Source: Candidatus Hadarchaeum sp. (GTDB lineage: Archaea > Hadarchaeota > Hadarchaeia > Hadarchaeales > Hadarchaeaceae). Taken from it: a DNA stretch of 10,962 nt. Under the pieces are notes generated by a model that saw only the letters and a program-made list of their open reading frames with translations, was not told the origin of the DNA and searched no databases. Below, piece by piece: positions 1 to 10,962 of the stretch. How positions within the stretch are numbered: the stretch's first letter is position 1; the number at the start of each line of letters is the position of its first letter. The stretch spans positions 1 through 10,962 of the forward strand of contig NZ_JBMFOX010000034.1 of NCBI RefSeq assembly GCF_049969415.1. Direction: 5' to 3'. The position numbers were made by a program, and so were the translations under genes.

Positions 1-158
1 CAGACTATCAGACCGTCATAGGTGGCTCCGATCCTGAGCACCCGTATTCTCGACTTTTGAGGGTTCACCAGCCCTTCCTTGGCGTAACTACAGGCAATCT
101 CACAGTTACGGCATCCGGTGCAGTCAAGCGGGTCAATATACAATATTTTCCTTGACAT
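1..158 (-). CDS. 4Fe-4S dicluster protein (DmsB/CooF/HydN-type electron-transfer subunit), N-terminal part, runs off the window
   Basis: Not in the ORF track. Manual translation from ATG at 158 gives MSRKILYIDPLDCTGCRNCEIACSYAKEGLVNPQKSRIRVLRIGATYDGLIV. It has CxxCxxCxxxC followed by the typical NPxxSRIRV segment. GGGTGA RBS lies 6 nt upstream and overlaps the stop of the previous gene. Confidence 0.9.
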   Translation of the reverse strand, partial: MSRKILYIDPLDCTGCRNCEIACSYAKEGLVNPQKSRIRVLRIGATYDGLIV

Positions 159-164
159 CCTTGT

Positions 165-1247
165 TCACCCCAGCTTTATCGCGCGGGTTGGGCAGAGGGT
201 GGCGCAGAGTCCGCAACCGAAACAGGATTTCTCATCCACTTCTGCCGCGCCTTCGTGTATCTTTATCGCCGCATAGGCACAAGCCCGTTCGCAAACACCG
301 CAGCCGTTGCACAAATTAAAGTCCACGGTCGGTATCCTGTAGGCAAACGAGGGCTCCTCTCTAAGATATTTCAAGGACAGCCCCCGGATTTCCTCCAAGC
401 TATCGTGTCCGAGCGCAGCTACAATTTCGTCAATTTCCTTAACTATCCTTGAAAAGACTCCCAGTCCCTTGAGGATGGCCGCGGTGTGGAGATGGACGCA
501 GGTGGCTCCGGCCATTAAGAATTCAACGGCATCCTTGCCATCGCTGATGCCGCCACCGCCGACGACCGGGATCTTTACAATTTTGGCCATTTCAGCAACG
601 CATCTCAGCGCCACGGGTTTTATGGCGGGGCCAGAGAGGTAACCGAAACCGAACTTTGAGCCCAGCAAGGGTTTACCTGTTTTCACGTCTATGACCAGCG
701 CTGGTCCTAGCGTATTGATTCCGGAGATGTAATCGGCTCCAGCCTTTTCAATTCCTTTGGCGTATCCCGGGATGTCCTTAACATCGGGGCCGATTTTTAC
801 TCCCACAGGAATGGAGACGGTTTCCTTGACCCTGCGGATGTCTTCTTGAAGTTGTTCAAGCGGAGGATTGGCGACGGGAAGTTCCAACATATCGGCTCCG
901 GCGGCTTCTAGGAGTTTAGCCATTTTCATTTCCTCCTCGATGTCACCGAGGATGCTAACGATCACCGGCTTCTTTCCCTCCTTGGCTATTTTCATCTGTT
1001 GGCAGAGCTGCATGGTGCTGAGTGCGGACCAGTCATGATTGATCATGTTACCGCTTCCGATGGCGGCCATGCATGGTCGAGGCGTGTCCTCTTCCTTGGG
1101 ATAAACGGTTTTGACCACAACCGCGCCAATGCCGTGATGCTCTGCGGCTTTCTTGACCGCCAGTCCATCCTTGCTCAGGGGTCCCGGGGCCAGTATCGTC
1201 GGAAATTCCAGCCTCAGTCCTGCAAAGTTTACTTCGAGGTCGACCGT
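165..1247 (-). CDS. Dihydroorotate/dihydropyrimidine dehydrogenase (class 1 DHOD/PreA)-like FMN enzyme with a C-terminal 2x[4Fe-4S] domain and a divergent active site
   Basis: Motifs present: GAVVVKT, PVGVKIGP, INT, LSGPAIKP, GGGIS, AGA and two CxxCxxCxxxC. The frame stays open upstream of the track start (1118) and encodes VDLEVNFAGLRLEFPTILAPG, the typical DHOD N-terminus. The best start is ACG at 1247, 4 nt after GGGTGA. The start position is an inference. Confidence 0.85.
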   Translation of the reverse strand, partial: TVDLEVNFAGLRLEFPTILAPGPLSKDGLAVKKAAEHHGIGAVVVKTVYPKEEDTPRPCMAAIGSGNMINHDWSALSTMQLCQQMKIAKEGKKPVIVSILGDIEEEMKMAKLLEAAGADMLELPVANPPLEQLQEDIRRVKETVSIPVGVKIGPDVKDIPGYAKGIEKAGADYISGINTLGPALVIDVKTGKPLLGSKFGFGYLSGPAIKPVALRCVAEMAKIVKIPVVGGGGISDGKDAVEFLMAGATCVHLHTAAILKGLGVFSRIVKEIDEIVAALGHDSLEEIRGLSLKYLREEPSFAYRIPTVDFNLCNGCGVCERACAYAAIKIHEGAAEVDEKSCFGCGLCATLCPTRAIKLG

Positions 1248-1257
1248 TTTTTCACCC

Positions 1258-2649
1258 TCAGCGTCTGGGCAGCTTCCAGACGGGGTTTATTGGAGTTTCG
1301 ATGGCGCGCTCTTGGTACTTCTCAGCTTGACGCTGGGCCCTCTCGAGCAGGCTGTCCTCGTCCACGGTTAATATCCTTTTATTTCTCACCACGATTTTGC
1401 CATCCACCATAACGGTGTCAACATCAGAACCGCGGCAGCTGAAGGCTAAAATGTCAAGCTTGTTCAAAGACGGCGTCAATTTGGCTTTGCCGGAAAAATC
1501 GACGAGGATTATATCTGCCTTTTTGTTCGGTTCTAGGGACCCTATTTCACGGTCACTGCCGAGAACCTTGGCACCGCCCATCGTGGCCAGATGCAGGGCT
1601 TGAGAAGACGGCAGCAGGCCCCCGTCTAGGTAGTAGAGGCGCAGCAAGGCCATGGAAAAGGTCATCAGCTCAAACATATCGTAGATGTTGACGCCGTCTA
1701 TGCCTAGGCCGACCTTACCATTTCTTTTGATCAGCTCCACGGCGGGAGCCAGCCCGTTGGCGTAAAAGGCATTGCTTTTGACGTTGAAGGACAGCCCCAC
1801 GTTGCTTCTTCGCCAGATCTCCAACTCCTTTTTGGAGATGTAGATCCCGTGAGCAGCAGCAACGTCAGGGCCCAAAAAACCAATTGAGTCCAGAAACTCG
1901 ACCGAACCGTCAACATGATATCTATTTTTTATCATCTCGACTTCATAGGTGCTCTGGGCGATGTGAATCTGAATACCACATTTATGTCTGTTGGCTATTT
2001 CCCGCGCTTTGATTAGTGTTTCCGGTGTGCAGGAGAAGCAGGTATGTATCCCCATCATCCCCCGAACGCGGGCATCTCTTTTATAATTTCTTTCCTTGAT
2101 GAAGGCTTCGTTTTCCCTTAGACCCATTTTGCCCTTGCTCAGGCTGACGCGATCGGTGGTTTCAAAGGAGAGGAATGCCCTGATTCCAGCCTCGTCGCAG
2201 GCCCTACCTGCGTGTTCCAGCGCCCCGGGAAGAAGGTTTTGGCCCTCCTGAAGGTCCGCGGTGCAAGTGATCCCATTCTTCAGCATTTCCACTGAAGCGA
2301 GAAGCACCCCAACGAAGACGTCTTCTTTGGTGCAAGTATCCTCAATTTTTGGCCACCACCAGCGCGTGAGAAGACTGCCAAAATCACCGGCCACCTCCGG
2401 TTGCAGCGGGATATCCATATACCGGGTTAAGGAGTTGTACATGTGATGGTGGGGCGTAACAAATCCGGGCAATATGGCCTTTCCTTTGGCATCAATGACC
2501 TCCTCAGCGCGGTATTTTCTTTTAATTTCCGCTGTTTTGCCCACGGCCAGAATTCGATTTCCCTCAACGACCAAGGCGCCGTCGTCTATAATTCTATTCA
2601 TCCGGTCCATGGTCACCAAAAATCCATTCGTGATGATGAAATCCGCCAT
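1258..2649 (-). CDS. Metal-dependent amidohydrolase, SsnA/chlorohydrolase/nucleobase-deaminase-like
   Basis: PGFVTPHHHMY (HxH metal motif), HIAQ, AAHG, GLGIDG (Asp ligand), TMGGAKVLG, IGSLEPNKKADII, DVDTVMVDG. FETTDR, the Trp-rich segment and the short DGxxxxDMF resemble the SsnA subfamily as I recall it. Confidence 0.9.
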   Translation of the reverse strand: MADFIITNGFLVTMDRMNRIIDDGALVVEGNRILAVGKTAEIKRKYRAEEVIDAKGKAILPGFVTPHHHMYNSLTRYMDIPLQPEVAGDFGSLLTRWWWPKIEDTCTKEDVFVGVLLASVEMLKNGITCTADLQEGQNLLPGALEHAGRACDEAGIRAFLSFETTDRVSLSKGKMGLRENEAFIKERNYKRDARVRGMMGIHTCFSCTPETLIKAREIANRHKCGIQIHIAQSTYEVEMIKNRYHVDGSVEFLDSIGFLGPDVAAAHGIYISKKELEIWRRSNVGLSFNVKSNAFYANGLAPAVELIKRNGKVGLGIDGVNIYDMFELMTFSMALLRLYYLDGGLLPSSQALHLATMGGAKVLGSDREIGSLEPNKKADIILVDFSGKAKLTPSLNKLDILAFSCRGSDVDTVMVDGKIVVRNKRILTVDEDSLLERAQRQAEKYQERAIETPINPVWKLPRR

Positions 2650-2676
2650 ATTTTCCTGTTAAATTTGAGCAAATAC

Positions 2677-2690
2677 AATAAAAACTTTTG
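2677..2690 (-). promoter_or_regulatory. Putative BRE/TATA promoter of the amidohydrolase operon
   Basis: The minus strand reads CAAAAG TTTTTATT, ending about 27 nt before the ATG at 2649. Confidence 0.55.
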
Positions 2691-2710
2691 TGAAAATGAG
2701 ATGATCCCGA

Positions 2711-2734
2711 ATTTAAATTAGAAATTTATCAATT
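2711..2734 (-). promoter_or_regulatory. Candidate transcription-factor site, copy 1 of a shared motif
   Basis: The minus strand reads AATTGATA-aattt-CTAATTTAAAT. A near-identical copy lies at 3928-3951. Confidence 0.4.
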
Positions 2735-2781
2735 TTTGATTTAAAGTGCAAAAAAGAAGCTAGCTGAAGCCAGAAAGGTTT

Positions 2782-2822
2782 AAAAAAAAATATCCTCTGG
2801 AGATTATAATTATCTCTAGAGG
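2782..2822 (-). terminator. Hairpin plus U9 terminator of the BMP gene
   Basis: The minus strand reads CCTCTAGAGAT-aattata-ATCTCCAGAGG-ATA-TTTTTTTTT. The 11-bp stem has one mismatch and includes the TAG stop. Confidence 0.7.
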
Positions 2823-3847
2823 CTGATGTTTTTCACCAGTTCCTTGACGTTTATTTTGCCGGATATGATGTCCTGCTTCGCCCGTTCCATCTCGTCCAGA
2901 ACGCTCTGGGGGATCTGATCCTTCAGCGCGTAGAAAGGAGTCAAGGTCACTCCTCCCGTCTTTAGATCTGCGGGGTATATTGACTTGAATTGTCCTGCTT
3001 TGATATCGAGCATTATCGTCTTGTAGTGGGAGTAGGAGTCCCAAATTGCGCTGGTTACGATGATGTTGGGGTTGATTGAGTGGGTGTCGCCCTCGCAGCC
3101 GAAGACGTAGGCCTTGCCGGTCTCTTGGGCAGCCATGATGGCACCTAGAACAGGACCGTCAGTCATCGGAGCAAGGAAGTCGGCACCGGCCTCAATCTGC
3201 GCCCTGGCTGTATCCTTTCCCAACGTGGCGTCCATGAAGCTACCAGTAACTGCGTAGAGAACTTTGGCGTTGGGGTTAACGCTGAGCACTCCAGCTTTGA
3301 ATCCCTTTGACCACTCGACGATGCCAGGAACTTCAAGCGGACAGAGAGTGCCGACAATGTTGGTCTTAGTCATTCTGCCCGCGAGTATTCCAAGCAGGTA
3401 GTAGGCCTCTTCCAAGTAAGACCAGACGACCGAGGCATTTGGCGGAAAGTCGGGTGCCAGCATAGCAGTGGTGACAAAGTATGAGTTGGGATACTTCTGG
3501 GCGGCTTCTCTGGTCGTGTCCACGAACTGAGATCCATGTTGAATTATGAGATCATAACCCTCTGCAGCATATCCGCTTGCAATTCTCACGGCGTCTGGAA
3601 CCGCTACTTGTTCGGTGTAGGAGAACTTGTCGGCAATCCCCTCCGCAACCAGCCTCGACACAGCTTGGTAGGCAGGACCGTTCCAAGTAAGGTCGGTTAT
3701 CACATCAGGCAACAACAGGGCTATCTTCCACTGTTTGGCACCGGTAGTTGCAGCAGGAGCTCCGGGTTGAGTTGCAACGTAGGCTGCGGCCACTGCGATA
3801 ATTGCAATCACTAAAATCACACCGGCAATCATTCCAGTTTTTGGCAT
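2816..3847 (-). CDS. BMP-family (purine/nucleoside) ABC transporter substrate-binding protein with an N-terminal membrane anchor
   Basis: KIALLLPDVITDLTWN, GYDLIIQHGSQF, AYYLLGILAGRMTKTNIVG, GFKAG, GSFMD, GAD and TSA match the BMP/PnrA-like pattern. The hydrophobic N-terminus has no lipobox Cys. GGAGGT RBS at 3853-3858. Confidence 0.9.
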   Translation of the reverse strand: MPKTGMIAGVILVIAIIAVAAAYVATQPGAPAATTGAKQWKIALLLPDVITDLTWNGPAYQAVSRLVAEGIADKFSYTEQVAVPDAVRIASGYAAEGYDLIIQHGSQFVDTTREAAQKYPNSYFVTTAMLAPDFPPNASVVWSYLEEAYYLLGILAGRMTKTNIVGTLCPLEVPGIVEWSKGFKAGVLSVNPNAKVLYAVTGSFMDATLGKDTARAQIEAGADFLAPMTDGPVLGAIMAAQETGKAYVFGCEGDTHSINPNIIVTSAIWDSYSHYKTIMLDIKAGQFKSIYPADLKTGGVTLTPFYALKDQIPQSVLDEMERAKQDIISGKINVKELVKNISL

Positions 3848-4023: not shown

Positions 4024-4422
4024 ATGTTCAAAAATATGGTTCTTTGCGTTACCGAGGCCACGCCGGAGGATGTGGTTCAGGTTGCCATAAAGCTCTGTTC
4101 CAAGGAAACCAAAGTTTTCGCGCTGCACGTGGTGCGGCTCTTGAGCGAATTCTCCAAAAAGGATGCCTTGGAAAGGTTCTCTTGGGTCATTGAAGCCTTT
4201 GAGAGAAAGGGATTGAAGAGCCAGCTGGAAATTATCGAATCCACGGATGTCGGCAGGGCAATCGTTTCCTTTGCTAAGAAAAATTCCTGCGACGTGATCG
4301 TTACCGGCACCATTCCGAAAAAAGGGCTGCTTGGTGTCTTTTCCGAGAGCATTTCAGATTATATCGTCAAGTATGCCCCCTGCACCGTGATTTTGGTGAG
4401 AAAGGCCAACCTACCGCCGTGA
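4024..4422 (+). CDS. Universal stress protein (UspA domain)
   Basis: MFKNMVL, ALHVV, AIVSFAKKNSCDVIVTG, SISDYIVKYAPCTVILVR. GGGGTGA RBS 3 nt upstream and a TTTATTA box at 3987-3993. Confidence 0.92.
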   Translation: MFKNMVLCVTEATPEDVVQVAIKLCSKETKVFALHVVRLLSEFSKKDALERFSWVIEAFERKGLKSQLEIIESTDVGRAIVSFAKKNSCDVIVTGTIPKKGLLGVFSESISDYIVKYAPCTVILVRKANLPP

Positions 4423-4459
4423 CGGCAATTTGGCCAATGATGACGAGGGACAGCAATTT

Positions 4460-5830
4460 ATGAACCTGATTTCCTTAGCGCCCATCATAGTCTTTGCCGC
4501 AACAATTTTTCTCGTCTTCAAGCACCCGATAGTGAGGATTCCGTTTACGCGAAGGCACATCCACTTGGATTATGGGTTGGCCCCGCTGTTCGGAGTGCTC
4601 GTTTTGATGGCCTTTGGCTCCATCAATTTTGATACTATCTTGCGAGGGATATTGGGCTCAGGTACGGTGACACCTTACGCAATAATAATACTGATTATCT
4701 CGCTTTCTTACATCTGCGTTTCCTTGGACTACACTGGGCTGTTTGAATACATCTCGCTGCGCTTCGCCCAGTATGCAGGAGGATCAGGAAGGAGGCTCTT
4801 CATCTACTTTTTCCTGCTCAGCAGCCTACTCACGGTGGTGACCGAGAACGATATAGTGATCCTAACGATGACGCCGATAATATTTTATTTCAGCCAGCGC
4901 GCGAAGGTGAATCCGGTTCCCTACCTTATCGCACAGTTCTTTGCCGCCAACATCCTGAGCATGATGCTGTACATCGGCAACCCCGCCAACATCATCGCGG
5001 CCGATTCGATTGGGATGTCCTTTTTGGATTTTTTAAAATGGATGTTCCTTCCATCGGTGGTGGCGATGGTCACCTGCTTGATTATGCTGATGCTAATCTT
5101 CTGGAGGAAGTTACCGGTAGAGACGGAGATGCCGGCCGTGGATCCGAACTTAGCCATAAAAAACAAAAGCGGGGCCGTGTTTGGCACCGTCCTGTTTATC
5201 ATCACCATTGTTTTGATGAGCGTTCCCACCAGCATCCTAGGAATGCCTCTGTGGGTGTTGACCTCAATCTCCGCCGGGATAATGGTCGTCTTCGACATCA
5301 TATACTATCACTATGTTGAGCCGAAAAGGACGGGGCAACGGTCCAGTATTTCTATAATAAGTTCTAGAATGCCTTGGAAGACGATACCATTCGTCGTAGG
5401 GCTTTTCATAATTGTTGAGGACTTGGTCTCAAAGGGCTGGACAGATTTCCTCGCCTCGCAGCTTTCTTCAATCACCGGAAGCTTGGTGGCCACAGTTTTT
5501 GGAATTATCTGTTTAACCTCTTTTGCCGCAGGACTGATGAATAATCAGCCGATGACAATATTTTTTGTTAGGATCTTCCAGAGCCCTTCTTTTGAAGCCT
5601 CGGCAGCGGCGCGAACTGGTTCAACCTTGGCGCTGGTAGCTGGTGCCAACTTTGGTGCCAACTTGACTCTGGTTGGGGTGCTGGCAGGAATTCTGTGGGC
5701 CAGTATTTTATCCGAAAAAGGAGTGCAGATATCGTTTTCAGGGTTCTCAAGATATGGCCTCTTAGTAATGCCCGTGGTAATTTTTTCGGCAGGTTTAACA
5801 TTGGCATTTGAATTATTATTGTGGAGTTGA
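4460..5830 (+). CDS. ArsB/NhaD-superfamily anion permease
   Basis: Many transmembrane segments. Motifs ENDIVILTMTP, GNPANII, NNQP and GANFGANLTLVGVLAGILW. I prefer ATG 4460, which follows GAGGGA, over the track's TTG at 4430. Confidence 0.88.
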   Translation: MNLISLAPIIVFAATIFLVFKHPIVRIPFTRRHIHLDYGLAPLFGVLVLMAFGSINFDTILRGILGSGTVTPYAIIILIISLSYICVSLDYTGLFEYISLRFAQYAGGSGRRLFIYFFLLSSLLTVVTENDIVILTMTPIIFYFSQRAKVNPVPYLIAQFFAANILSMMLYIGNPANIIAADSIGMSFLDFLKWMFLPSVVAMVTCLIMLMLIFWRKLPVETEMPAVDPNLAIKNKSGAVFGTVLFIITIVLMSVPTSILGMPLWVLTSISAGIMVVFDIIYYHYVEPKRTGQRSSISIISSRMPWKTIPFVVGLFIIVEDLVSKGWTDFLASQLSSITGSLVATVFGIICLTSFAAGLMNNQPMTIFFVRIFQSPSFEASAAARTGSTLALVAGANFGANLTLVGVLAGILWASILSEKGVQISFSGFSRYGLLVMPVVIFSAGLTLAFELLLWS

Positions 5831-6294: not shown

Positions 6295-7470
6295 CTACTG
6301 GACAAATATCATGAAAGGTCTGGGGCTGAAGATGGTGATGATTGTTTTGAATTCCTTCTCTGAAAACTTCCACCGGTAGGCGAGGGGCAGATGGGCGCAG
6401 AAGTCACCACAGGGGCGCGGGATGTTCGGGTTGTCAAAGTCGAAGATTTCCTCGACGGGGCTTTCCTCAGTTTCGATAGTTACTTCCCATTGTCCCCACC
6501 AGATAGTGGCTCCGGAGGTTCCCAATGGGATTGGTGTCGCTGTGGGCAAGCCAAGCAAGCCTGCCGGATCTTGGCGCCTGTAGTCGACGTTTTTGACCTT
6601 AAGGTCACGGTAAACCGATATTCCCGGAGTTTTTCTGAGCGGGGTGGGGGGCAGGAGCTCATAGATATTTTCTCGACATACGATTAACTTCTTGCCTGGC
6701 CCGTTTAACAAATCAATCGCGATTGTGGTGAGGTCCGCTTCGGTTTTTAAGTAGTCCGTTGAGCCGAAGATTTCAAGTTCTTTGATTGACCAAGCGGCTT
6801 CGAAAGCCAACGCAGTTCTGGAGCGGTTGAGCGTTACTTTCTCGGCTAAAATCAAATCGGTTAAAACCCTTGAGTATTCCAGAGCCGTCCAAATTCCTAT
6901 GATATCCCCTATCCCTGCCCTGAACTCTTCCATTTTCTGCGCTAAGAGAAAATATCTTGAATCCACCAGAATAGCGGTATTCTCCAGCGAAGCTGAAATC
7001 CGGGTATTGCTGTCCTGGGAGGTGATCATTACCCTCGAGCCTTCAGGGAAAGTTACATCGGCAAGCACGAAGCCACTATCGGATTCCGAAATTTTTATCA
7101 GATGATCCCTCTTGTCAGAGGGGATGACTAATTCAATTCTGGAGCCATGGCGGCTGGATTCAATTTCTGATATTGCCACATGAAAGTATTTCGTCGCCAG
7201 TACTTCAATTTCCGCTAACGCGTTTTCCGAATAATCGCTAGCTTTTTTGCAAACTTCCCACAACGCTTTGAAAACGGCTTGCTTAGCGATTAACCGGATA
7301 TTTTGATAAATCTCCGCGGCAGTCGTGAAAAGGGACGACTGTGATGAGTCGAAAATAATATTCAGCGCCCTGTGGTGCCGGTGAAACTCTGCTTGAGCCA
7401 GCATGGCGATGATGACCAAAACCACGATTGCTCCCGCAGCACTGAAGGGAATAAAACCTCGTTCTTTCAT
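6295..7470 (-). CDS. Large prepilin-like (class III signal peptide) protein, possible minor pilin or adhesin
   Basis: MKERG|FIPFSAAGAIVVLVIIAMLA: basic residue, Gly, then a hydrophobic helix. ATGA overlap with the upstream gene. Confidence 0.75.
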   Translation of the reverse strand: MKERGFIPFSAAGAIVVLVIIAMLAQAEFHRHHRALNIIFDSSQSSLFTTAAEIYQNIRLIAKQAVFKALWEVCKKASDYSENALAEIEVLATKYFHVAISEIESSRHGSRIELVIPSDKRDHLIKISESDSGFVLADVTFPEGSRVMITSQDSNTRISASLENTAILVDSRYFLLAQKMEEFRAGIGDIIGIWTALEYSRVLTDLILAEKVTLNRSRTALAFEAAWSIKELEIFGSTDYLKTEADLTTIAIDLLNGPGKKLIVCRENIYELLPPTPLRKTPGISVYRDLKVKNVDYRRQDPAGLLGLPTATPIPLGTSGATIWWGQWEVTIETEESPVEEIFDFDNPNIPRPCGDFCAHLPLAYRWKFSEKEFKTIITIFSPRPFMIFVQ

Positions 7471-8141
7471 CGGGACCAGAGCTCCAAACCAATTTCAATA
7501 ACAGGATTAGTTTCCAGATGCTGAGGTAAGGAAAAGCCAAGCCTGTTCTCAGCGAGGCTAATCAGCTCCTCGTTTGAGATGGGAAGCGAGAGCAGCGATG
7601 TTTCGCGGCACAACTTGGTCCCAGAAGGTGAAAGGTTCTCGATGAGGAGGTTAAAATCGAAGCTGACAATATTGTTTTTTACCGGCGTTGCCTTCACTAC
7701 GAATCTATATCCAAATTTCCTGCCAGCGAGGTTATCAAGTATCGACTTTAGAAGAAAACTTAACTTGTTGTTCATGTCCTCGTTGGACCAAATTGTGGCG
7801 ACAGTTCTGCTCCCGATTTTTAGTTGCAGGTTCAAGAGAACATCTTCTGCCAGCAGCTCTCCCATGGTCTTGTGTCCTAAATTTCTCAAAGCTAGGTAAA
7901 GTGGTGTTTGGCCGCTAATTTCTGGAACTTGAAAACCAGCTTGGTAACTAAATCCTCCGAATTGGTCTGTGGTGCTGTTCAACAGAGCGAGCAGAGCATT
8001 TCTGGTGAAGCTCATGGCATAGATTTTCGTGCTGATTTCGGCGTTGGGCTGAGAAAATGTGAATAAAACGGTAAACGAGAGCGAGACCAAGAGGGCAAAT
8101 ATTAGCAAGTCAATGGTATAGCCAATTCCATGTTTATTCAA
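7467..8141 (-). CDS. Prepilin-like (class III signal peptide) protein
   Basis: A TTG start at 8141 after GGAGGGAG gives MNKHG|IGYTIDLLIFALLVSLSFTVLF, 1 nt after the upstream stop. The track's 8237 start overlaps the previous gene. Confidence 0.75.
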   Translation of the reverse strand: MNKHGIGYTIDLLIFALLVSLSFTVLFTFSQPNAEISTKIYAMSFTRNALLALLNSTTDQFGGFSYQAGFQVPEISGQTPLYLALRNLGHKTMGELLAEDVLLNLQLKIGSRTVATIWSNEDMNNKLSFLLKSILDNLAGRKFGYRFVVKATPVKNNIVSFDFNLLIENLSPSGTKLCRETSLLSLPISNEELISLAENRLGFSLPQHLETNPVIEIGLELWSR

Positions 8142-8142
8142 T

Positions 8143-8580
8143 TTACTCCCTCCAGAGTTGGACTTTGAGTTCGCAGAGGAGCACCGATTCGCTATCGCAG
8201 GCAAGGGCGATTGGAAGGCTAACGCTCGATTCGGCAAAATAATTTCCCGTCTGAGGTTCAGAGAAATTTTCCAGCTTATAAATCAGTTTTCCGGTAAGGG
8301 ACCGTATTTCAACTTGCATGTTCACTCCGCGTAAAAACAAAATTTTTGAAAGGTTTTCCAAGCGTCCCGGCAAAATCTCGATTGTTTCAATTCTCCTGGA
8401 TTCGTCCATAGCGCCATAAATGATGGCTTCCGCGGTGTCCAGCGTTGATCTGAGATCATCCATTTCTTGCATTTCTCGAGAAGTGTTTTGATACCAGTTA
8501 ATCGCCGCAGCCGCCAGCATCAGTAGCAGCACTGTGGCGACGAGGATGGAGAGTAAGTCCTCACCCCCGTTAACGGTCAT
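8143..8580 (-). CDS. Pilin-like protein with a degenerate class III signal peptide
   Basis: ATG 8580 (ATGA overlap) gives MTVNGGEDLLSILVATVLLLMLAAAAI: a single N-terminal hydrophobic helix, then an amphipathic helix and beta strands. Confidence 0.68.
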   Translation of the reverse strand: MTVNGGEDLLSILVATVLLLMLAAAAINWYQNTSREMQEMDDLRSTLDTAEAIIYGAMDESRRIETIEILPGRLENLSKILFLRGVNMQVEIRSLTGKLIYKLENFSEPQTGNYFAESSVSLPIALACDSESVLLCELKVQLWRE

Positions 8581-9002
8581 CCAATCAACTCTAAGTCTAT
8601 CACACCTGTTTGTCGGATGATAATTCCGCGCGGGTTTTGCTTCGAAATGAGGAACCAACCACCGTTGACGACCGAACTTATGATCAGCGAGCGCTCGAGT
8701 TCAATCTTAGATGAGACCCGCACGGATATCAGTTGAAAGCCGTTAATCAGCTCTCCGGCCAGCGAAACCTCAAATGCTCTTGATATTGGGGCAAAATCCT
8801 TGAGGTACTCGATTTCTCCGGGGAGCCCATCTATCCTTTCCAATGACTCGATTATGTTTCTCGCAATCAATTCTAGTTCTTCCTTTTCAGAGGTTCTGTC
8901 GACAAACGAGTTCAGCGAGAGGGCAAGGCCGATGAAGGCGATGGCGGCGAAGGCCACTCCCAGTTTGCTCAGCAGAAAACCAGCAGAGCCATTGTTCTCC
9001 AT
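8577..9002 (-). CDS. Pilin-like protein with a degenerate class III signal peptide
   Basis: MENNG|SAGFLLSKLGVAFAAIAFIGLALSL followed by a long helix. It starts 1 nt after the upstream stop, with a GAGGGT RBS. Confidence 0.68.
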   Translation of the reverse strand: MENNGSAGFLLSKLGVAFAAIAFIGLALSLNSFVDRTSEKEELELIARNIIESLERIDGLPGEIEYLKDFAPISRAFEVSLAGELINGFQLISVRVSSKIELERSLIISSVVNGGWFLISKQNPRGIIIRQTGVIDLELIG

Positions 9003-9003
9003 T

Positions 9004-9408
9004 TCAGATACCCTCGATCTTTATAAAGAAACGGCCATCAACCCCTTGGCAAATCATCAGGAGATAAAAGCCGCTCCTGAGCTCATTTTCGTCAGCTGAT
9101 ATTGGCAGTGGTAGAAGCTCGGTTCTAATGCTATCTCCGCTCAGAAGCTGAACTAAATTTCCCTTAAGGATAATTATACCGTCTCCCAGCTGAAGCTCAA
9201 CTATTTTTGAATTTCCCACCCCGCCAGCGCAGAGGATTTGGGATTGTTCGACGAGTAAATTGAAACTGTTGATTGCCCGCTGGCGGTCGATCATTCTTTG
9301 GGTTCGGTTTATGACATCGATTCCGATAGAAACGGAGCTGACGGCCAGCATGGCCCCAATCATGATAATTACTGGCAGCGATTCTATACCTCGAGTATCC
9401 TTTATCAT
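9004..9408 (-). CDS. Prepilin-like (class III signal peptide) protein
   Basis: MIKDTRG|IESLPVIIMIGAMLAVSSVSIGI, then a long helix and a GGVGNSKIVEL turn and strand. Confidence 0.78.
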   Translation of the reverse strand: MIKDTRGIESLPVIIMIGAMLAVSSVSIGIDVINRTQRMIDRQRAINSFNLLVEQSQILCAGGVGNSKIVELQLGDGIIILKGNLVQLLSGDSIRTELLPLPISADENELRSGFYLLMICQGVDGRFFIKIEGI

Positions 9409-9414
9409 CGGAGT

Positions 9415-9792
9415 TTACCTCACAGCTACTTGCCCCTGCCAGGGGATGTAGCCGTTCCTGGTGACTTGGACCGTGACGAGGACGACTTTGGCACCGTTCA
9501 TTGGTATGGTGAAGGTGTATTGGTTGGTCTCCTTCCCCAGCGTGCGGGCGTCGGTGCCGCCGGGATATTTCAGCACAATCGTCGCACCGCCCAAGGCGCC
9601 ACCGCTGGCGGCATCGTAGACTTTGACCGTGAGCTTCTTTCCCGAGATAGAGAACTGGACGTCCATGTCCTTGAGCACGTTGCGTTCGGCCGTGCCCACA
9701 AATTGCATCATGATGCCCATGGTCATCGCGCCGATCACGAGCGCCATGATCAGCTTGATCGGCACGCCCATCAACTGTCCTTTTTCTTCCAT
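9415..9792 (-). CDS. Prepilin-like protein with a carboxypeptidase-regulatory/transthyretin-like beta-sandwich domain; candidate major pilin
   Basis: MEEKG|QLMGVPIKLIMALVIGAMTMGIMMQFV. The C-terminal domain reads LTVKVYDAASGGALGGATIVL...YTFT...VTRNGY. First gene of the operon. Confidence 0.8.
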   Translation of the reverse strand: MEEKGQLMGVPIKLIMALVIGAMTMGIMMQFVGTAERNVLKDMDVQFSISGKKLTVKVYDAASGGALGGATIVLKYPGGTDARTLGKETNQYTFTIPMNGAKVVLVTVQVTRNGYIPWQGQVAVR

Positions 9793-9824
9793 TTCTTACC
9801 CGCCGATTTCTTGCGGGCAGCTTC

Positions 9825-9834
9825 TTTATATAAA
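9825..9834. promoter_or_regulatory. Palindromic TATA box TTTATATAAA, possibly bidirectional
   Basis: It lies between the divergent starts at 9792 (-) and 9854/9863 (+), at promoter-like spacing from both. Confidence 0.6.
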
Positions 9835-9850
9835 ACAAAATTTTGTTTTA
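9831..9850. repeat. Perfect 20-bp palindrome TAAAACAAAATTTTGTTTTA, candidate operator
   Basis: Read directly: TAAAACAAAA is followed by its exact reverse complement. Confidence 0.8.
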
Positions 9851-9862
9851 GAAATGAGCGCC

Positions 9863-10126
9863 ATGGCAAAAACTTACTATGTCTACATCCTGCGGAGCTT
9901 GAAGGACGACAACTTTTACACGGGACACACGGCCGACCTCAGGAAGCGGTTGGCCCAGCACAACCGGGGCGATGTTCGTTCGACTAAAGCGAGAAGGCCG
10001 CTGGTCCTGATTTACTGGGAGCCGTTCAAAACCCGTGGAGAGGCGATGCGGCGGGAGCGAAAGATAAAGTCGATGTGTCACGAGGCCAAGTTGAAGTTAA
10101 TTGAGGAATTCAGACAACCGGGATAG
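9863..10126 (+). CDS. GIY-YIG nuclease family protein (UPF0213/YhbQ-like)
   Basis: YYVYILRS...FYTGHT.DL.KRL.QHN.G...STK.RRP..L.Y.E...EAMRRERKIK. The start is 9863 or 9854. The track's 9623 start overlaps the pilin gene. Confidence 0.92.
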   Translation: MAKTYYVYILRSLKDDNFYTGHTADLRKRLAQHNRGDVRSTKARRPLVLIYWEPFKTRGEAMRRERKIKSMCHEAKLKLIEEFRQPG

Positions 10127-10137
10127 TTTTTTAATAA
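10127..10137 (+). promoter_or_regulatory. T6 tract immediately after the GIY-YIG stop; terminator and/or TATA box of the next gene
   Basis: TTTTTTAATAA, ending 26 nt before ATG 10164. Confidence 0.4.
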
Positions 10138-10163
10138 CCTTGTTCTAGCTTAAATGGGATAAA

Positions 10164-10661
10164 ATGCGAGATGGGGCCCTGAAGTGGGCGCTGCGGCTGC
10201 TGGGAATAGCTTTGGTGGTAGTCCCCATAATCTTGGCCTTTTCTGCCAACGGCTGGGATTTGAAGAAGGCGTTGCTGCCCAGCGAGCAGGAGCTGAGCCA
10301 AGTTTCGGAGGGGGTCGGTGACATCTTCGGCGGTGGTTTCTCCGAGGAGACAATGTCCATGGGCCAACCCGTAATCAGCGGCAGCAGCGTCAGGGTCCCA
10401 GTGACGTTCAAATCCCCTTTTAAAGTTCCGATCAAGCTCAAGGAGGTGAACCTGACCGTTTCAGGTCAGGGGATGCCACCCATCCAGCTTCAGATGGAGG
10501 AGGAAGAATTGGAAATTCCGGCGAACGGTTCCGTAAACTTCACGCTAGTTGGGACCATCCCCGGTTCACCTCCGAGCAATCCCCAAATAACCGCCGTTAA
10601 CGTTACCTTTGAGATCTATGGAGTGACCATTCAATTTAGCCCGAAAATATCAGGTGGTTAG
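10164..10661 (+). CDS. Membrane-anchored hypothetical protein with a beta-rich (LEA_2/WHy-like) extracytoplasmic domain
   Basis: N-terminal TM segment (LRLLGIALVVVPIILAF). VPVTFKSPFKVPIKLKEVNLTV and EIPANGSVNFTL resemble the LEA_2 strand pattern. Several NxT sequons. Confidence 0.65.
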   Translation: MRDGALKWALRLLGIALVVVPIILAFSANGWDLKKALLPSEQELSQVSEGVGDIFGGGFSEETMSMGQPVISGSSVRVPVTFKSPFKVPIKLKEVNLTVSGQGMPPIQLQMEEEELEIPANGSVNFTLVGTIPGSPPSNPQITAVNVTFEIYGVTIQFSPKISGG

Positions 10662-10663
10662 TT

Positions 10664-10962
10664 ATGACGTCCTGTAGTTCAACAAACAAACACTCCATGA
10701 ACTTCCTTGGCATCGCTGCCGGGGCCCTGATGGTGATCCTACCATTTCTCGGGCCTTGGTGGGTGGCCAGCGTGGGCACCGGGGCTATGGAGATAGCCCT
10801 CTCCCCATTTGACCTGTTGATCTCGGTGTTCGGACAGCCCATTCACTCGCAACTGGTTGACCTCTTTCTGCTGGCGGGGAAGATAACCATGATTCTCGGC
10901 GGTGTCTTCCTAATCTTGGGGTCGCTGTCGGTAACCAGCTGGTGGTCCGCTCGTTTGGTCAG
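10664..10962 (+). CDS. Multi-pass membrane hypothetical protein, runs off the window
   Basis: Not in the ORF track. ATG 10664 after AGGTGGT is open to the window end: MTSCSSTNKHSMNFLGIAAGALMVILPFLGPWWVASVGTGAMEIALSPF...ITMILGGVFLILGSLSVTSWWSARLV. Confidence 0.8.
   Translation, partial: MTSCSSTNKHSMNFLGIAAGALMVILPFLGPWWVASVGTGAMEIALSPFDLLISVFGQPIHSQLVDLFLLAGKITMILGGVFLILGSLSVTSWWSARLV

Follow-up and report, generated by a model that had tools for sequence, protein, structure and literature searches.

A putative tungsten-enzyme-linked ring-opening gene cluster with altered SsnA-like and PreA-like proteins in Hadarchaeota

Background

The closest described systems to the locus reported here are the bacterial core enzymes of reductive uric acid and 2,8-dioxopurine degradation. 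The locus consists of four co-oriented genes on the minus strand at positions 1–3847 of contig C34 of G000, a metagenome-assembled genome (MAG) from the archaeal phylum Hadarchaeota (1.47 Mb in 138 contigs, estimated completeness 95%). G000 is assigned to Candidatus Hadarchaeum by the names that its close homologues carry. The whole of C34, 10,962 nt in length, was analysed and is termed the window. The genes encode a BMP-family binding protein, an SsnA-like amidohydrolase, a PreA-like flavoprotein with iron-sulfur (Fe-S) clusters, as well as the first part of an Fe-S polyferredoxin. An AOR-family tungstopterin gene lies next to the remainder of the polyferredoxin gene on a second contig, C26. 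The locus is read as a reductive ring-opening module that is coupled to a tungsten enzyme and acts on a non-standard purine-like heterocycle, with a probability of about 55%, and as a diverged paralogue of the bacterial pathway core.

In Escherichia coli, YgfK and SsnA together, and neither alone, convert 2,8-dioxopurine into ring-opened products, and HyuA catalyzes the next step (10.1101/2025.05.19.654654). The same preprint ascribes the absence of product with YgfK alone to unfavourable thermodynamics. In Clostridioides difficile YgfK is replaced by UacX (Q181U4), a PF01180 flavin mononucleotide (FMN) protein without a flavin adenine dinucleotide (FAD) domain, which is thought to be ferredoxin-dependent, ferredoxin being the proposed donor (10.1101/2025.05.19.654654). 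The bacterial pathway is described there as combining a pterin enzyme, XdhD, with a flavoenzyme, YgfK or UacX, in a net four-electron reduction. The SsnA survey in that work is confined to bacteria, and its main text never uses the word "archaea". The reductive uric acid pathway is likewise the subject of another 2025 preprint (10.1101/2025.04.24.650524).

The AOR family belongs to the tungsten oxidoreductases (WORs), for which five classes have been described: WorL alone (Class I), WorL with WorS (Class II), addition of a subunit that binds FAD and nicotinamide adenine dinucleotide (NAD) (Class III), electron-bifurcating (Class IV) and respiratory-linked (Class V) (PMC13328260). According to this classification, benzoyl-CoA reductase is the only known member of the family with a non-aldehyde activity, its BamB protein acting on an aromatic ring, and AorABC shows that a flavoprotein can serve as the third subunit and accept electrons from WorL-WorS (PMC13328260). 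The main text of the classification does not contain the terms purine, amidohydrolase, dihydroorotate, dihydropyrimidine, uric or Hadarchae, although its supplementary gene-neighbourhood dataset could list such neighbours. In the literature searched, no paper was found that ties AOR or tungsten enzymes to SsnA, PreA or purine catabolism, and none that describes such a cluster in Hadarchaeota.

Altered active sites of the two enzymes

The best NCBIfam matches of the amidohydrolase are to chlorohydrolase and SsnA models, every one of them below cutoff (TIGR03314, 286 vs 455.5; NF005540 for SsnA, 292.5 vs 444; PRK06038, 308 vs 609). Alignment with E. coli SsnA and GuaD, both taken from the annotated K-12 record, shows that the metal ligands are all kept (H67, H69, H229, H267 and D318). 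Residue 232 (codon 1954–1956) is a Gln in the motif IHIAQS, at the position where E. coli SsnA (IHAAED), GuaD and two paralogues have the Glu of HxxE. This position was compared in an alignment of the 120 best database homologues and five references. Among the 125 rows it is Gln in 24, Glu in 50, Asp in 50 and Val in one. The Gln rows are all of P0001–P0023, which have at least 43% identity to the window protein, and P0040. The Gln argues against deaminase-type protonation.

A quick IQ-TREE phylogeny was made from 69 rows, i.e., every row with Gln, the complete set up to P0034 and after that every third row, which left out 56 of the 120 homologues. In this tree the Gln clade has 23 rows with an SH-aLRT support of 100. 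E. coli SsnA groups with an SsnA-like paralogue encoded on contig C2 of G000 (support 97), and the Gln clade forms a separate branch. The two share a superclade (support 99), from which the deaminase-type sequences are separate. The branches of E. coli SsnA and GuaD are both long. The C2 paralogue is also the best match to E. coli SsnA in G000, with 196 bits vs 131 for the window amidohydrolase. The label of SsnA-like enzyme in the original prediction, which was made from the DNA sequence of the window, is appropriate at the level of the superclade, but the protein is not SsnA proper and has in the C2 protein a paralogue closer to SsnA.

The PreA-like protein combines the fold of dihydroorotate dehydrogenase (DHOD) and PreA with a C-terminal domain for two [4Fe-4S] clusters. 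It is below both curated cutoffs (NF006183 for PreA, 173.9 vs 335; NF005574 for DHOD 1B, 187.1 vs 269) and has 29% identity to E. coli PreA and 35% to the PyrD of G000. The invariant residues of the FMN barrel and all eight ferredoxin Cys residues (C313–C323 and C342–C352) are present. The catalytic Cys and approximately 21 residues of its loop are missing, and the sequence there is ELPVANP, with VAN at 867–875 where S-C-P is expected. The Cys of S-C-P and the loop are kept in E. coli PreA, in the G000 PyrD encoded on contig C10 and in four other paralogues. The Cys is also missing in all 23 close homologues of the PreA-like protein (P0121–P0143). Without the Cys loop the pocket would be opened, and the loss speaks against a chemistry on uracil or orotate.

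The original prediction had noted altered catalytic motifs in both enzymes. The changes are those described above, and they define clades and are not private to G000. Among the open reading frames (ORFs) submitted to Pfam, which were from the window, from C26 and from sister loci, none had a PreT/PyrK-type FAD/NAD partner domain. BLASTP of the PreA-like protein against E. coli YgfK gave only short, weak matches, the best with 25.8 bits. A scan of the reference-genome contigs with the PreA-like protein gave only two matches, both to the ferredoxin domain in bacterial MAGs, and no related cluster.

The PreA-like reading frame has no ATG, GTG or TTG before position 1118. The likely start position is occupied by an ACG (1245–1247), and G005, another genome of the phylum, has an ATG there. 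The ACG is common to five of six independent assemblies (G000, G001, G003, G007 and the metagenome contig L048). It is 10 nt past the upstream stop codon, and a Shine-Dalgarno-like GGTGA motif is a few nt upstream of it. The orthologues have no internal stops and a dN/dS of 0.09–0.13 at a dS of 0.85–1.9, the near-identical pair of G003 and L048 being excluded. The gene likely starts at this non-canonical ACG or by termination-reinitiation. An alternative, that a homopolymer error in an A6 run has removed a normal start (there is an out-of-frame GTG just upstream), was rejected because the ACG is present in five independent assemblies and the gene is under purifying selection.

The polyferredoxin and AOR genes across a contig break

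With the ACG start, the amidohydrolase stop codon (1258–1260) is separated from the PreA-like gene by 10 nt. The PreA-like stop codon (165–167) is 6 nt from the ATG of the polyferredoxin gene. These values agree with the spacing of 6–10 nt originally given for the last three of the four co-oriented genes, all four of which are on the minus strand.

The polyferredoxin gene runs off the left end of the window. The last 21 nt of contig C26 (15681–15701) are the same as the first 21 nt of the window except for one mismatch that changes a Leu codon to Pro. This overlap resembles an assembly break at a strain variant, and C26 and C34 are considered neighbours on this basis. At its right end C26 has the codons for residues 49–158 of this Fe-S protein and then the AOR gene, and the two halves of the Fe-S gene are complementary. 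The same order is found unbroken in five genomes (G001, G003, G004, G005 and G007) and in the contiguous L048. It consists of the amidohydrolase, PreA-like, polyferredoxin and AOR genes, a divergent MoaD/ThiS-like gene, and arginase-family and hydantoinase-like genes. Next in the Hadarchaeum genomes is a DUF2284 gene and then mostly a trio of amidohydrolase, Mo-bisPGD and Fe-S genes; the trio was not seen in the stretch of G004 that was fetched. The amidohydrolase, PreA-like, polyferredoxin and AOR genes are read from their spacing as a four-gene operon, the first three members of which start in the window, with the rest on C26. Extension to the left had been proposed originally as a means of finding a catalytic subunit of the AOR or xanthine dehydrogenase (XDH) family, a hydantoinase and a carbamoyltransferase. 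It gave an AOR catalytic subunit and a hydantoinase-like gene, but no carbamoyltransferase in the cluster.

Full-length orthologues of the polyferredoxin have 153–167 amino acids (aa) and four Cys motifs, the first of which is the only one in the window. There is an 11-nt overlap between the Fe-S gene and the AOR gene. The AOR protein has 641 aa (AOR641; the copy on C26 is at 13453–15378 of L020) and matches PF02730 with 269 bits and PF01314 with 433 bits. Among solved structures it is nearest to Pyrococcus furiosus AOR (1aor, 497.9 bits), followed by AorB of Aromatoleum aromaticum (8c0z, 365 bits); its score to BamB is 285 bits. An AFOR_N plus AFOR_C WorL beside a WorS that in its orthologues has four [4Fe-4S] motifs is the composition of Class II. 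The AOR protein keeps a Glu and a His that correspond to what we take to be Glu313 and His448 in P. furiosus AOR. The first Cys of the CxxCxxxC motif that ligates the [4Fe-4S] cluster in P. furiosus AOR is Gly or Ser in six of six orthologues. Four other residues, Cys98 and Cys99 in an SSCCGH loop, Cys167 and Cys506, are conserved in the AOR641 clade only. The cluster might be ligated differently, with Cys506 or another Cys as a substitute, or there might be extra thiols near the cofactor.

Of the two genes farther downstream, the hydantoinase-like gene scores 371 vs a cutoff of 393.25 with the dihydropyrimidinase model. The arginase-family protein keeps DAHAD and DLD sequences, which we take to be the metal-binding motifs of that family.

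Conservation, and a second, Glu-type form

Fourteen loci with the Gln-type amidohydrolase were compared. They are from G000, from seven other genomes of the phylum (G001, G002, G003, G004, G005, G007 and G011) and from six further loci that include metagenome contigs (L048–L053). Contig ends cut the G002 and L053 loci, and the L053 contig stops inside the amidohydrolase gene. A PreA-like gene is adjacent to the amidohydrolase in 13/14 loci, with the cut L053 as the exception. An AOR-family gene is present in 12/14, all but the two cut loci, and the polyferredoxin in 11/14, the others being the cut loci and G011, where none was found. Hydantoinase-like and arginase-family genes are both present in 10 of the 14; they are not in L050 and L051 or in the cut loci.

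At least three gene orders occur among these loci. The Hadarchaeum order is amidohydrolase, PreA-like, Fe-S and AOR. In L050 and L051 it is PreA-like, Fe-S, AOR and amidohydrolase, and in L052 it is PreA-like, amidohydrolase, hydantoinase-like (on the opposite strand), arginase-family, Fe-S and AOR. The arrangement is not due to chance, as it recurs in relatives and in metagenome contigs. The neighbourhood conservation on which the original prediction depended is held despite rearrangement, and the XDH-family gene that it anticipated is found beside the cluster in G004, G005 and L049.

Within the phylum the amidohydrolase is present in 8 of 66 genomes, namely seven of the eight of the genus (including G000) and G011. 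AOR orthologues with at least 79% identity are found, among the 66 genomes, in exactly the seven genus genomes that have the amidohydrolase; G006, with an estimated completeness of 90%, has neither. Members of the Gln clade outside the phylum are named Hecatella, Bathyarchaeia, Anaerolineae and Tectomicrobia, and we take Hecatella to be a member of Bathyarchaeia. With these outside members and its presence in only 8/66 phylum genomes, the distribution is patchy and crosses domains.

The SsnA-like paralogue on C2 of G000 (in the region 5040–9130 of L025) has the normal Glu and scores nearer to the SsnA cutoffs (NF005540, 410.9 vs 444; TIGR03314, 387.3 vs 455.5). It is adjoined by a gene for a Cys-less PreA-like protein with an ELSTHY motif and by a hydantoinase/dihydroorotase-like gene. 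Ten Glu-type loci were compared, this one and nine from other Hadarchaeota genera. The SsnA-like and PreA-like genes are adjacent in eight of these nine (L039–L047), usually with a divergent hydantoinase/dihydroorotase-like gene and genes for ADP-forming acyl-CoA synthetase. No AOR-family gene was found in the fetched flanks of the ten Glu-type loci (0/10). The Glu-type pair may correspond in archaea to the SsnA-UacX-HyuA core of bacteria.

Genes for XdhD, for YgeW or UacY, and for YgeY and YgeX were not found in the window or on C26. Elsewhere in G000 there are four XDH-family genes, one with 39% identity to E. coli XdhD, a carbamate kinase and YgeW-like carbamoyltransferases. The idea that the AOR is a necessary substitute for a missing molybdenum hydroxylase is unsupported for G000, given these four XDH-family genes.

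G000 has further groups of related genes. Contig C8 has carbamoyltransferase, hydantoinase-like, AOR and DHOD-like genes together, C49 has DHOD-like, AOR, Fe-S and XdhC genes, and C36 has Amidohydro_2, AOR and Fe-S genes. These modules of AOR, DHOD-like and cyclic amidohydrolase genes, with the XDH genes and the carbamate kinase, suggest that G000 is an N-heterocycle fermentation specialist. At the right end of C8 an open-ended ORF (3921–5021 in L023) joins a dCMP/cytidine-deaminase domain (residues 5–101) to a C-terminal part of AOR (AFOR_C positions 138–385) with no stop between. The ORF could be a genuine fusion or the product of a chimeric contig end.

The BMP gene and other features of the window

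The coordinates of the features of the locus are given in Table 1. The BMP protein passes the PF02608 gathering threshold (141.8 bits vs 24.1), but it does not reach the cutoff of NF047927, a B6 binding protein model (129.8 vs 400). Its solved relatives are 7x0r, an "Lbp" protein (best, 135 bits), AtzT (6pi5, 88 bits), 3s99 (68 bits) and PnrA (2fqw, 47 bits). The last three have the PF02608 fold in common with the window protein, but their similarity to it is low and the ligand is not readable from sequence. The AtzT binding site is reported to have kept guanine (PMC6834077).

The gap between the BMP gene and the downstream amidohydrolase gene is 166 nt and contains a T9 run, a candidate terminator that would part the BMP gene from the four-gene operon. 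The BMP gene is adjacent to the cluster in G001, G002 and G003, and it is on the opposite strand in G005 and L049. The flanks fetched for G004, G011, L050 and L051 did not contain it. The gene is probably its own transcription unit and its product is probably an uptake component. Its place in the module, as first proposed, is retained in that the gene is adjacent; it is weakened by the apparently separate transcription, the flips in orientation and its absence from several loci.

Table 1. Features of the locus at the left end of the window
Feature	Position	Strand	Evidence or remark
4x[4Fe-4S] polyferredoxin (WorS/AorA-like), 5' part, first 52 residues at 3–158	1–158 (ATG 156–158)	-	cut by contig end
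PreA/DHOD-like FMN protein with C-terminal 2x[4Fe-4S] domain, 360 aa	165–1247	-	PF01180, 128.8 bits, and Fer4
SsnA-like amidohydrolase, Gln clade, 463 aa	1258–2649	-	PF01979, 170.8 bits
T9 run just past BMP stop codon, candidate archaeal oligo-T terminator	2782–2790	-	direct sequence reading
BMP/PnrA-family substrate-binding protein, 343 aa, hydrophobic N-terminal anchor	2816–3847	-	PF02608

Divergent from the BMP gene, at 4024–5830 on the plus strand, are genes for a universal stress protein and an ArsB/CitMHS-family permease. The pair is in the same place in G001 and G003 (78–91% identity) and is absent there in G004 and G005. It is probably outside the module. For the majority of the ORFs at 6295–10962 Pfam gives no match. 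Matches are limited to a GIY-YIG nuclease domain at 9623–10126 (E 6.8e-17) and a weak phage-tail match, below cutoff, at 6295–7470.

Four contigs of G000, C19, C41, C62 and C69, match the archaeal small-subunit ribosomal RNA model with 1505, 969, 803 and 432 bits, respectively, and the C41 match is approximately 1800 nt. The uneven matches could be due to an insertion, strain mixture or contamination of the MAG.

Comparison with described systems

The window locus has, in common with the bacterial reductive uric acid/2,8-dioxopurine core, an amidohydrolase of the SsnA superclade beside an FMN/Fe-S reductase with the DHOD/dihydropyrimidine dehydrogenase (DPD) fold and, as in UacX, without an FAD/NAD domain. 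The match between UacX and the PreA-like protein is in architecture and gene context only. A hydantoinase-like gene is near the cluster as well, and XDH-family genes are in the genome and, in three relatives, beside the cluster. The analogy to SsnA and its flavoprotein partner, drawn originally from gene content, is in line with the bacterial finding that YgfK or UacX together with SsnA reduces and opens 2,8-dioxopurine (10.1101/2025.05.19.654654). Unlike the bacterial core, the locus is in an archaeal host, has Gln in place of the HxxE Glu with sub-cutoff SsnA scores, and has a reductase without the Cys loop. It also differs in the presence of a polyferredoxin and an AOR-family tungstopterin gene in the same predicted operon and of a co-conserved arginase-family hydrolase, and in the absence of YgeW, YgeY and YgeX from the cluster. 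The description of the module as new therefore applies to the archaeal, AOR-linked variant, not to the principle of reducing and opening the ring.

The PreA-like protein has the PF01180 FMN barrel in common with PreTA and class 1B DHOD, and the C-terminal two-cluster ferredoxin domain is as in PreA. It differs from both in having no PreT/PyrK partner, no catalytic Cys and approximately 21 fewer loop residues.

AorABC of A. aromaticum (Class III, with WorL, WorS and WorN) and the window locus have in common a catalytic subunit with AFOR_N and AFOR_C, a small subunit with four [4Fe-4S] clusters and a flavoprotein gene in the operon. The third protein of AorABC is the FAD/NAD-binding WorN, whereas here it is an FMN protein with the DHOD fold, two [4Fe-4S] clusters and a substrate pocket, encoded upstream with the amidohydrolase. 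A further parallel is BamB-I, the class II benzoyl-CoA reductase, likewise an AOR-family tungsten enzyme that serves a low-potential ring dearomatisation with Fe-S partners. BamB reduces the ring itself and has a Cys ligand to tungsten, whereas the candidate for ring reduction here is a separate flavoprotein, and the AOR is far closer to P. furiosus AOR than to BamB.

Proposed function and alternatives

In the favoured reading, which is built on gene content and active-site motifs, the BMP protein and ABC permeases encoded elsewhere in the genome would import a nucleobase-like compound. The FMN of the PreA-like protein would reduce a double bond of the ring. A complex proposed from the gene arrangement would supply the electrons, which we infer to pass from the tungstopterin and cluster of the AOR through the four polyferredoxin clusters and the two clusters of the PreA-like protein to FMN. 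The amidohydrolase would hydrolyse the reduced ring and thereby pull the unfavourable reduction forward. The products would be processed by the hydantoinase-like and arginase-family enzymes, whose genes are a short distance downstream of that of the AOR. Two changes, Gln in place of the proton-shuttling Glu and the missing Cys loop, suggest that the substrate is neither 2,8-dioxopurine nor uracil. The co-conserved arginase-family enzyme hints at guanidino or formimino rather than ureido intermediates.

Several observations weigh against this proposal. Both the amidohydrolase and the PreA-like protein are below every curated family cutoff and each is without a residue deemed catalytic in its relatives, so either enzyme could have a different or non-catalytic role. 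The C2 paralogue is the nearer SsnA counterpart, and the window module is for this reason not the standard pathway. A query with E. coli YgeX gave no match in G000, and YgeY gave only a match of 23%; the known downstream route to pyruvate is thus not evident. The G011 locus has no polyferredoxin and its PreA-like match stops short of the Fe-S domain, while in L052 two genes are between the Fe-S/AOR pair and the PreA-like/amidohydrolase pair. A fixed physical complex is, from these arrangements, not required by gene order. The AOR lineage also varies between loci, with identities that are mostly 70–88% but 36% for L050/L051 and 39% for G011. Finally, the AOR has an ordinary aldehyde-oxidising active-site signature and is nearest to P. 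furiosus AOR.

The last two points also concern the role of the AOR. The ordinary signature and the differing lineages in the same slot count for a generic role in electron supply, and the strict linkage of the AOR to the Gln type and the features of the AOR641 clade count for a specific role. It is possible, although not probable, that the AOR and polyferredoxin are a mere low-potential electron source, with aldehyde oxidation or reduced ferredoxin driving the ring reduction at the FMN of the PreA-like protein. The score of 497.9 bits to P. furiosus AOR, the conserved Glu/His pair and the occupation of one position by different AOR lineages are consistent with such a role. There is precedent in the electron transfer of AorABC from WorL-WorS to a flavoprotein subunit (PMC13328260), as well as in the lack of product from YgfK alone and the ferredoxin proposed for UacX (10.1101/2025.05.19.654654). 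However, the cluster has no evident step that would produce an aldehyde, the Glu-type paralogue does without a nearby AOR gene in its ten loci, and the joint occurrence of AOR linkage and the Gln change is left unexplained.

A rather unlikely alternative is that the AOR itself acts on the heterocycle as a tungsten counterpart of XdhD. It would hydroxylate or dehydroxylate a ring carbon, or oxidise a hydrated one, in one complex with the PreA-like protein, so that both redox steps were carried out together. The contrast between Gln-type and Glu-type loci in the presence of an AOR-family gene (12/14 vs 0/10) agrees with this, as do the loss of the first CxxCxxxC Cys and the clade-specific Cys98, Cys99, Cys167 and Cys506. 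The requirement of the bacterial pathway for both a pterin enzyme and a flavoenzyme is a further argument, and BamB is an AOR-family protein that acts on an aromatic ring (PMC13328260). On the other hand, a stand-in for a molybdenum enzyme would be unneeded with four XDH-family genes in G000 and an XDH gene beside the cluster in G004, G005 and L049. The aldehyde-type Glu and His are kept, and the AOR lineage is inconstant between loci.

It is also unlikely, to a similar degree, that the substrate is of another compound class, i.e., a pyrimidine, a hydantoin, a guanidino-bearing heterocycle (guanine or creatinine-like rings), a pterin or a pyridine. The score of the hydantoinase-like gene near the dihydropyrimidinase cutoff (371 vs 393.25) could be taken in this way. 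The apparently competent arginase-family hydrolase in 10 of the 14 loci suggests a guanidino or formimino, not a ureido, intermediate. Both altered active sites argue against standard substrates, and the nearest solved BMP relatives bind varied ligands. Against such a substrate are the absence of a PreT-like partner and of the Cys for uracil or orotate chemistry, the phylogenetic affinity of the amidohydrolase to SsnA and not to dihydropyrimidinases, and the richness of G000 in XDH-family genes.

That the genes are unrelated neighbours, a housekeeping DHOD, a 5-methylthioadenosine/S-adenosylhomocysteine (MTA/SAH) deaminase and an aldehyde-detoxifying AOR, is very improbable. The names that JGI gives to homologues, "5-methylthioadenosine/S-adenosylhomocysteine deaminase" and "dihydroorotate dehydrogenase catalytic subunit", would fit it, but the genes are conserved together through three gene orders and co-occur phyletically, and they are 6–10 nt apart. 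In all 23 clade members another residue stands in place of the deaminase Glu. G000 also has, on C10, a normal PyrD that keeps the Cys and, on C18, a pyrB-like carbamoyltransferase beside a cyclic amidohydrolase, likely pyrC.

Significance

It was not until 2025 that the reduce-then-open logic of anaerobic purine breakdown was elucidated, and then for bacteria alone. Hadarchaeota carry two forms of related clusters: a conserved SsnA-like/PreA-like/hydantoinase-like cluster and a rarer form, remodelled in both active sites, to which a tungsten-type oxidoreductase and its polyferredoxin are coupled. Two simple markers, the Gln-for-Glu exchange and the change in the Cys loop, allow the variant to be recognised from sequence.

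A bolder version of the proposal, which is speculative and improbable, is that a new class of tungsten oxidoreductase complex is made up of WorL, WorS and the Cys-less flavoprotein with the DHOD fold. The tungstopterin would work on the N-heterocycle, by dehydroxylation or by oxidation of a ring carbon hydrated by the Gln-type amidohydrolase, and FMN would reduce the ring. If so, the processing of a purine-like base would involve neither a molybdenum hydroxylase nor NAD(P)H nor free ferredoxin. This would represent a second non-aldehyde chemistry for the AOR family and a route of anaerobic nucleobase catabolism in subsurface archaea.

For the favoured reading of a tungsten-enzyme-coupled reductive module, a physical coupling of these proteins would add a type of partner that is unmentioned in the main text of the five-class WOR scheme. 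It would imply a new physiological role for a very large and mostly uncharacterised family, and it would suggest how small-genome archaea of the deep subsurface live on the nucleobases of necromass.

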